Source: Eledone cirrhosa (lineage: Eukaryota). Taken from it: a stretch of 64,000 nucleotides of DNA. How positions within the stretch are numbered: the first letter of the stretch is position 1; every line of letters begins with the position of its first letter. The stretch covers positions 265,918,001-265,982,000 of the forward strand of contig OZ024742.1 of NCBI GenBank assembly GCA_964016885.1, in the 5' to 3' direction. Below the pieces are notes generated by a model that saw only the letters and a program-made list of their open reading frames with translations, ran no database searches and was not told the origin of the DNA. The translations under genes were made by a program, and so were the position numbers. Positions 5,974 through 6,097 of the stretch are shown here, piece by piece.

Positions 5974-6097
5974 GGAACCAGTAAGACCCCGACAGCTGAG
6001 CTCAAGCCGTTTCGACGGCTAATTCTGGACTCAGAATTCAGTCCAGAATTAGCCGTCGAAACGGCTTGAGCTCAGCTGTCGGGGTCTTACTGGTTCC
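5974..6097. repeat. 124 bp palindrome (58 bp perfect arms, 8 nt loop CAGAATTC) containing a hammerhead 3' half
   Basis: 5974-6031 is the reverse complement of 6040-6097. The arm reads ...GCCGTC-GAAA-CGGCT TGAGCTC AGCTG-TC-GGGGTC. Confidence 0.9.

Follow-up and report, generated by a model that had tools for sequence, protein, structure and literature searches.

The palindromes that lie in (TA)n arrays of the window (the whole 64-kb stretch of DNA analysed here) are almost certainly abortive 5′-end insertions of a Hydra-type Penelope-like element (PLE). The arm of the palindromes is an internal segment of a retroelement with a reverse transcriptase (RT), and their earlier description as retro-copies was correct. 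Judging from sequence, two target-primed cDNAs, one from each of two internal start sites, would probably run off the capped 5′ end of the RNA and be joined head to head.

Copies of the family in the window

The first-pass annotation had listed four family members. Four copies are indeed present, but they represent three events, as the copy at 7002 is a duplicate of that at 5974. The features are as follows.

4720..8370 (3.6 kb), no strand: TA array with CG/TG interruptions; insertion target, internally duplicated later
5974..6031, minus strand: inverted arm, antisense of parent +1..+58; outer end at site 2 (helix I foot), inner end exactly at the putative +1
6032..6039, no strand: junction CAGAATTC, a putatively cap-like C plus a short arm-templated piece
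6040..6097, plus strand: sense arm, matching the pLTR of intact full-length elements at 58/58 positions
6050..6057, plus strand: helix II 3′ strand (from the parent fold and alignment)
6058..6080, plus strand: GAAA core, helix III with the self-complementary TGAGCTCA loop region, and GUC triplet (from fold and alignment); cleavage predicted after 6080
6081..6097, plus strand: helix I 3′ strand (GGGGT...TTCC) and subfamily-variable block, ending at site 2
7002..7125, no strand: duplicate of the 5974 palindrome, 98% identical, centre identical; right arm with two substitutions
53635..53758, no strand: older palindrome from a different subfamily; left arm 53635-53694, right arm starting at 53699, AGTT as centre
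53759..53841, plus strand: tail, the parent sequence between RT start sites 2 and 1, then (TA)n (from sequence comparison with the parent)
62678..62736, minus strand: inverted arm up to +1, plus an additional C (from sequence comparison)
62737..62824, plus strand: right-arm remnant (ACTC microhomology join) and tail to site 1, then (TA)n

The copy at 5974-6097 is a 124-bp palindrome in which perfectly complementary 58-bp arms flank an 8-bp centre, with TA repeats on both sides. Its sense arm runs from an initiator-like A (+1) within loop II of the hammerhead to site 2, without the tail. The claim that the copies are perfect palindromes holds for this one; the duplicate carries its two substitutions, the 53635 palindrome is 87% self-complementary and has an 83-bp tail, and the 62678 copy, which is not a palindrome, has one inverted arm fused via ACTC microhomology to the final bases of the right arm and the tail. 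The right arm at 5974 carries the hammerhead 3′ half in the order that had been proposed (GCCGTC-GAAA-CGGCT-TGAGCTC-AGCTG-TC-GGGGTC). The ribozyme 5′ half is missing, again as claimed: the 5′ core strand and the 5′ strands of helices I and II are absent from 5974, 7002, 53635 and 62678, so that the palindromes themselves are not type I hammerheads. Rfam at gathering thresholds gave no match anywhere in the window, and the repeat search across the whole window was dominated by TA arrays.

As the 5974 and 7002 copies share their centre and a similar spacing of downstream TA interruptions, they can be traced to one insertion duplicated inside the array 4720-8370. Their tail-less form is atypical, both tails being missing in 0/62 palindromes sampled elsewhere. 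The 5974 copy is likely a rare tail-less case, resulting from a double start at site 2 or from later loss of the tail by TA slippage, and then duplicated. Inserts like the CAGAATT at 5974 are likely explained by short fold-backs; centres of near-identical CAGAATT type were found repeatedly among the genome copies.

Family size in the genome

In the 3.0-Gb genome, the tail 22-mer has 30,513 exact matches (reversed control, 0). The exact 5974 subfamily accounts for 7,096 strand matches, or about 3,550 palindromes (control, 0). The 50 listed loci of this subfamily have many different centres despite their near-identical arms. Since centres vary among the copies of one subfamily, each palindrome is built at insertion and not copied as a unit. 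Exact patterns for the hammerhead 5′ half gave 6,504 matches in the genome versus about 63,000 for the 3′ half, and about 90% of the copies consist of the 3′ half only.

The parent element

In some copies the upstream sequence is not inverted and leads into a 3′ UTR and then an endonuclease frame, and full-length units were reached by a protein search. The parent forms a tandem with a 3,542-bp period, units 99.8% identical and an open frame of 784-786 codons. Each unit opens with the arm (58/58 identical to window positions 6040-6097), followed by the tail and then the open frame; arm and tail make up the first ~140 nt of the unit upstream of the intact RT and GIY-YIG frame. A tandem on contig C1 at 91.47-91.49 Mb (loci L150-L151) has five pLTRs and four intact frames of 784-786 codons. 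It adjoins a 55-bp minisatellite, the unit of which matches part of the element ORF.

The parent protein carries the RT motifs DKT, FDIESYY and YRDD and, at the C-terminus, a GIY-YIG (VIY..YIG). Features diagnostic of the Hydra clade are found at residues 102 (RLRWR), 184 (DKT), 639 (CNCPDRSIC), 737 (CNLCSEE) and 756 (N..CKH); one Cys lies inside the GIY-YIG core, and the CX2-5CxxC motif (CCHH) is absent. Since Pfam returned 0 significant families for the full parent protein (GIY-YIG at E 0.17 on a fragment), assignment to the EN+ PLEs is by inspection of motifs. Protein homologue search gave 876 matches, essentially unnamed, and those listed are 38-56% identical. The PLE traits found are a tandem of five pLTRs, inverted copies (L154-L157) and one tail in 61/62 palindromes. 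As placed by motifs and (TA)n targeting, the parent is a Hydra-type Penelope-like retrotransposon.

The parent hammerhead

It had been predicted that a non-palindromic parent with the ribozyme 5′ half would be found elsewhere in the genome. Such a parent exists, but the predicted form CTGANGA-GACGGCTAATTC is absent from the genome: the search for it (CTGANGA-GACGGC) gave 7 matches, and the 5 inspected are one unrelated repeat. In the real parent, CCCC-TTGANAA-G-N-TCGGCTAT is followed by a loop of ~35 nt and by TAGCCGTC-GAAA. The two other structural claims stand: of the type I hammerhead the arm represents the 3′ half, and the palindrome axis lies in loop II.

Among 47 distinct complete copies the core is TTGANAA in 32, TTGAAGA in 3, CTGAGAA in 2 and another single variant in 5, the remaining 5 being mis-parsed and excluded. 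The core is thus mostly UUGANAA (U3-A8) and not the canonical CUGANGA, with the hammerhead topology present. The 3-8 pair, scored in 24 copies, is UA in 20, UG in 2, CG in 1 and other in 1. Helix cells pair at 86.8% versus 31-53% when the alignment is slid, and the minimum free energy fold of the parent is a type I three-way junction with a loop II of ~35 nt. The fold energy of the parent is no better than that of shuffles (z 0.12), covariation in the parent hammerhead alignment is not above shuffles, and Rfam gave no hammerhead match in the parent at E up to 10. By sequence and fold the parent is a type I hammerhead with a U3-A8 core, for which self-cleavage is predicted after GUC. Its three helices surround a conserved core with the 3-8 pair, G5, A6, A9, G12-A13-A14, A15.1-U16.1 and an NUH triplet.

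Arms whose start coincides with the predicted GUC cut, or is no more than 1 nt from it, make up about 6 of the 100 sampled (by eye), a number that GGGG microhomology may inflate. These arms (L034, L037, L040, L043, L077, L081) are possibly copies of self-cleaved RNA. A parent subfamily has the core CTGAGAA with a C3-A8 mismatch (L041, L097; about 1/5 of the first 100 exact-pattern matches). The spread of this subfamily despite the mismatch hints that cleavage may be dispensable for insertion.

Inner ends of the arms

End positions, tails and arm concordance were scored in samples taken from the start of one contig, made up of the first 100 matches to the tail on contig C1 and of pattern samples drawn later. 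Loci L001-L030 were excluded from these counts, as their query began at the axis and was therefore biased; L069, a TA-only false palindrome, was removed from the loop count. The scoring used a numbering with a zero, which shifts negative positions by one; a few ends were misplaced in helix III by the local aligner (e.g. L037).

Sense arms of the 100 C1 tail matches start at -12..+10 in 63 cases, at -34..-13 in 2, at +11..+36 in 15, at +37..+46 in 7, at +47..+60 in 2 and beyond -199 in 8; none starts at -198..-35, and 3 right arms were left out as unscored. Inverted arms end at -12..+10 in 58/74. In 41 of 51 complete parents, +1 falls on the A of a TTAGTC or TCAGTC, and an AT-rich 8-mer beginning with TAT (TATTTATT in 27, TATTTAAA in 7) starts at -29..-31 in 42 of the 43 parents where it was located. 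A YAGTC-like initiator and a TATA box at about -30 are general promoter consensus features. The TAT of the TATA-like box is constrained by helix II too.

A non-parental base directly precedes +1 at many arm ends. Among 3,654 palindromes with both arms reaching +1, this base is G at 955 arm ends and A at 249, many of the latter in A-runs. The G has a G partner in 64/99 G-arms, and in ~16/68 loci with G (hand count) it is unexplained by a templated insert. An untemplated 5′ G has been interpreted as a copied cap in L1 (PMC9341517), and an internal promoter in Penelope of Drosophila virilis as well as TATA and Inr-like motifs in Adineta pLTRs have been described (PMC2377424, PMC3846280). From these features of the arms we infer a capped RNA 5′ end in loop II. 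Counting against the cap reading, G is found on only ~13% of the arms that reach +1 (955/7,308). The commonest G-type centre, CAG (18/68 loci, hand count), can also be read as a self-templated insert. Many arms reach -2..-4 or stop at +2..+7, and given this scatter the start would have to be a cluster with trimming. Long A/T runs occupy the centre of some palindromes (L045, L095, L184 and others), which points to slippage on the run of U immediately preceding +1.

The stop in loop II could be attributed instead to stalling of the RT or to an RNA processing site (U-rich loop, bound protein), with the head-to-head joining of two cDNAs retained. The spread of ends over ~20 nt, the runs at some centres and the lack of the extra G on most arms speak for such a stall. 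Yet 0/8 arms extending past -35 end in the next 164 nt, while 63/73 of those reaching +10 end within 22 nt, a contrast for which two classes of template are the easier explanation. With the preponderance of G over A (955 vs 249) and the TATA-like and initiator-like motifs at the expected spacing also against it, a stall or processing site is unlikely.

Outer ends, tails and targets

The outer ends fall at two fixed sites, with one on each side of the insert. Site 2 marks the helix I foot and site 1 lies 83 nt further on. TA repeats are found at 93/100 tail ends and 50/56 left ends. In a sample of 62 palindromes, part of which was chosen for having a tail, 61 have a single tail (57 by script and 4 by eye), 1 has two tails and 0 have none. 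Genome-wide there are 33,459 site-2 ends and 29,864 tail-bearing ends, near one each per insert. The inverted arm starts at a fixed site that matches the second RT start site. Short-read contigs from public runs include (TA)n loose ends at both sites and an opposite-strand (strand-switch) joint at +2.

Junctions of the two arms

The palindromes have 0-2 unpaired central bases in 21/55 cases. Among 25 clean young junctions, a blunt join or an overlap of 1-2 nt is seen in 18; the longer arm is the tail arm in 12, the tail-less arm in 8, and the arms are equal in 5. Where both arms are of a recurrent subfamily type (50 palindromes, ~15/50 of them chosen as concordant; 25% concordance expected at random), 45 are concordant, 4 are discordant at one site and one, L074, at three sites. 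L074 is a chimera joining two subfamilies that differ at 3 sites.

The first-pass annotation held that a single cDNA folds back and copies itself into the inverted arm. In published work, junction palindromes are ascribed to self-priming (Arkhipova et al. 2013, PMC3846280), and these counts therefore test that reading too. Concordance of the arms (45/50) is predicted by snap-back as well and so counts against joining of two cDNAs. CTG-GACT-CAG centres and templated CAGAATT inserts show that short fold-backs of cDNA ends can occur, and ~1/3 of the young junctions (~9/25, by eye) have a geometry that snap-back could make. Several results disfavour it as the main route. The loops are of 0-2 nt in the 21/55 palindromes, and the tail-less arm is the longer one in 8/25; a copy cannot exceed its template, and a site-2 cDNA cannot supply the tail. 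The inverted arm has a fixed start, there is a three-site chimera, and four one-site discordances occur between recurrent types. Nor does snap-back explain why copying should halt exactly at site 2 or why the axis is fixed. Zero-loop centres, a longer tail-less arm and a chimera are products that the folding of one cDNA cannot yield. It could produce a minority of the palindromes; as the general explanation it is very unlikely.

That the palindrome is itself the replicating unit, either a MITE with terminal inverted repeats (TIRs) and TA duplication or a non-autonomous retro-MITE, has a negligible chance of being correct: high copy number, a length of ~120-200 bp and TA on both sides would fit, but centres differ per copy among the 50 listed loci with near-identical arms, the tail is found beyond the inverted repeat and at one of its sides only, and the arm is an internal segment of an RT-bearing retroelement. 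No constant TIR-bounded unit is copied whole, and a TA-duplicating DNA transposon, the alternative that had been set against the retro-copy reading, was rejected.

A model for palindrome formation

In the joining of two cDNAs, transcription would start at the loop-II site, with its TATA-like box at -30 and initiator-like YAGTC, and the mRNA would consequently begin with the ribozyme 3′ half only. The endonuclease would nick both strands of the TA repeat and the RT would prime from each nick. Priming at site 1 would yield arm and tail, and priming at site 2 the arm only, in keeping with the in vitro behaviour of Poseidon PAc. The cDNAs would stop after ~60 and ~140 nt at the RNA 5′ end, sometimes with a C added opposite the cap. 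Their 3′ ends would then be joined bluntly, through 1-2 nt of microhomology or via small inserts of templated sequence. Templates with sequence upstream of the start sites (read-through or circular RNA) would account for long copies and tandems. A second PLE family of the genome, taken as a control for generality, has the same tail and inversion anatomy but dispersed axes, which may count against run-off in loop II.

A wider reading, which we hold as tentative and on balance doubtful, takes in the loop-II promoter, completion of the ribozyme in cis, three fates of the RNA and a record of an asymmetric RT dimer. The capped mRNA would start with half a ribozyme, and the core strand located at the transcript's far 3′ end could supply the rest in cis, in a helix-II-open arrangement in which the whole ORF would be loop I; cleavage would remove the cap and allow circularisation. 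Uncut capped RNA would then give the run-off palindromes, cut linear RNA the starts at the cleavage site, and circles the full-length tandems. If so, tens of thousands of stubs would record both an asymmetric RT dimer, starting at site 1 for one strand of the target and at site 2 for its partner, and the way in which PLE insertions close.

Other elements in the window

A 5′-truncated copy of the second, also Hydra-like PLE family is present at 47113-48645. It has a CxCx5C linker, inverted pLTRs, a ~65-nt tail and a canonical minimal hammerhead (CTGAGGA..GAAAC-AATTGTT-C). The tail 22-mer of this family has 3,972 exact matches, and its short palindromes have dispersed axes lying mostly upstream of the whole ribozyme. 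The likely 3′ end of a third PLE-like family at ~53200-53567, with a CTGATGA...GAAAC hammerhead at 53457, abuts the same (TA)n as the 53635 palindrome. One sequence with CTGATGA occurs as an inverted pair ~3.7 kb apart at 38326 (minus strand) and 42049 (plus strand), possibly an element with inverted ends. At 59006-59231 there is a 40/81-bp tandem repeat with ATGACGTCA/ATGACATCA motifs.

Comparison with known systems

The EN+ PLEs of the Hydra clade (Craig et al. 2021, PMC8557442) resemble the parent in having a single ORF with RT and C-terminal GIY-YIG. They have in common with it RW[KR], DKT, a CxCx5C linker, CxxC before E, CxH after N and no CCHH, as well as (TA)n targeting, a pLTR hammerhead, an inverted 5′-truncated copy and a tail. 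In contrast, the parent unit is 3.5 kb versus generally <3 kb in this clade, the tail is 83 nt versus the 30-40 reported for PLEs, and the hammerhead is U3-A8 with a long loop II where that of the Hydra clade is canonical (PMC8557442).

The U3-A8 core is a known variant of PLE hammerheads (Cervera and de la Pena 2014, PMC4209133). Those ribozymes are likewise of type I in pLTRs, with U3-A8, a long helix II in which a base close to the start is odd, G10.1-C11.1, a palindromic loop III and opposite-strand motif pairs 100-700 bp apart. They differ from the present family in that helix III is here a stable stem of 5-6 bp, the ~35-nt loop II holds the putative promoter, and ~90% of the copies have the 3′ half only. 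With a U3-A8 core, a long loop II and mostly half copies, ribozymes of this kind would be missed by motif searches.

Poseidon PAc of Anolis nicks and extends both target strands and is predicted to act as a dimer, and its RT starts at two internal sites that bound the tail (Frangieh et al. 2024, PMC11167929). It shares with this family the two start sites near the unit 5′ end, AT-rich targets and uncleaved RNA as template. PAc belongs to a different clade; the account as available leaves the joining and second-strand steps open, and describes neither run-off palindromes nor a start site within a ribozyme (PMC11167929).

Penelope elements of Adineta have inverted pLTRs arranged head to head, palindromes at the junction and, in some cases, a one-sided tail (Arkhipova et al. 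2013, PMC3846280), and their pLTRs share TATA and Inr-like motifs. There the copies are few and self-priming on an antisense template was proposed, whereas the thousands of ORF-less stubs found here favour two sense-templated cDNAs.

Non-LTR retrozymes (bioRxiv 10.64898/2026.07.22.740005) are also small, non-coding and PLE-derived, with hammerheads related to those of pLTRs. They are arranged head to tail in tandem, with complete ribozymes, and replication as circles has been suggested for them, in contrast to the head-to-head half-ribozyme dead ends described here. Membership in this class was rejected for the palindromes, which hold half motifs head to head and not head-to-tail units with complete type I hammerheads.

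Run-off palindromes, a cap signature and a loop-II start site of a PLE hammerhead were not found in the literature searched, which included few subscription papers; the hammerhead file S2 of PMC8557442 may bear on this. Inverted pLTRs, tails and junction palindromes are already published; the promoter inside loop II and the junction statistics are new. As the element class and its inverted architecture are known, the value of the family is mechanistic and no new system is involved. The completion of PLE insertion and the origin of inverted repeats and one-sided tails are stated to be open (PMC8557442, PMC11167929). Beside these systems, the present family supplies minimal insertion products by the thousand, left by a young element whose ORFs are intact, countable ends that can decide between self-priming and joining of two cDNAs, and palindromes that predict the transcription start to within a few bases.
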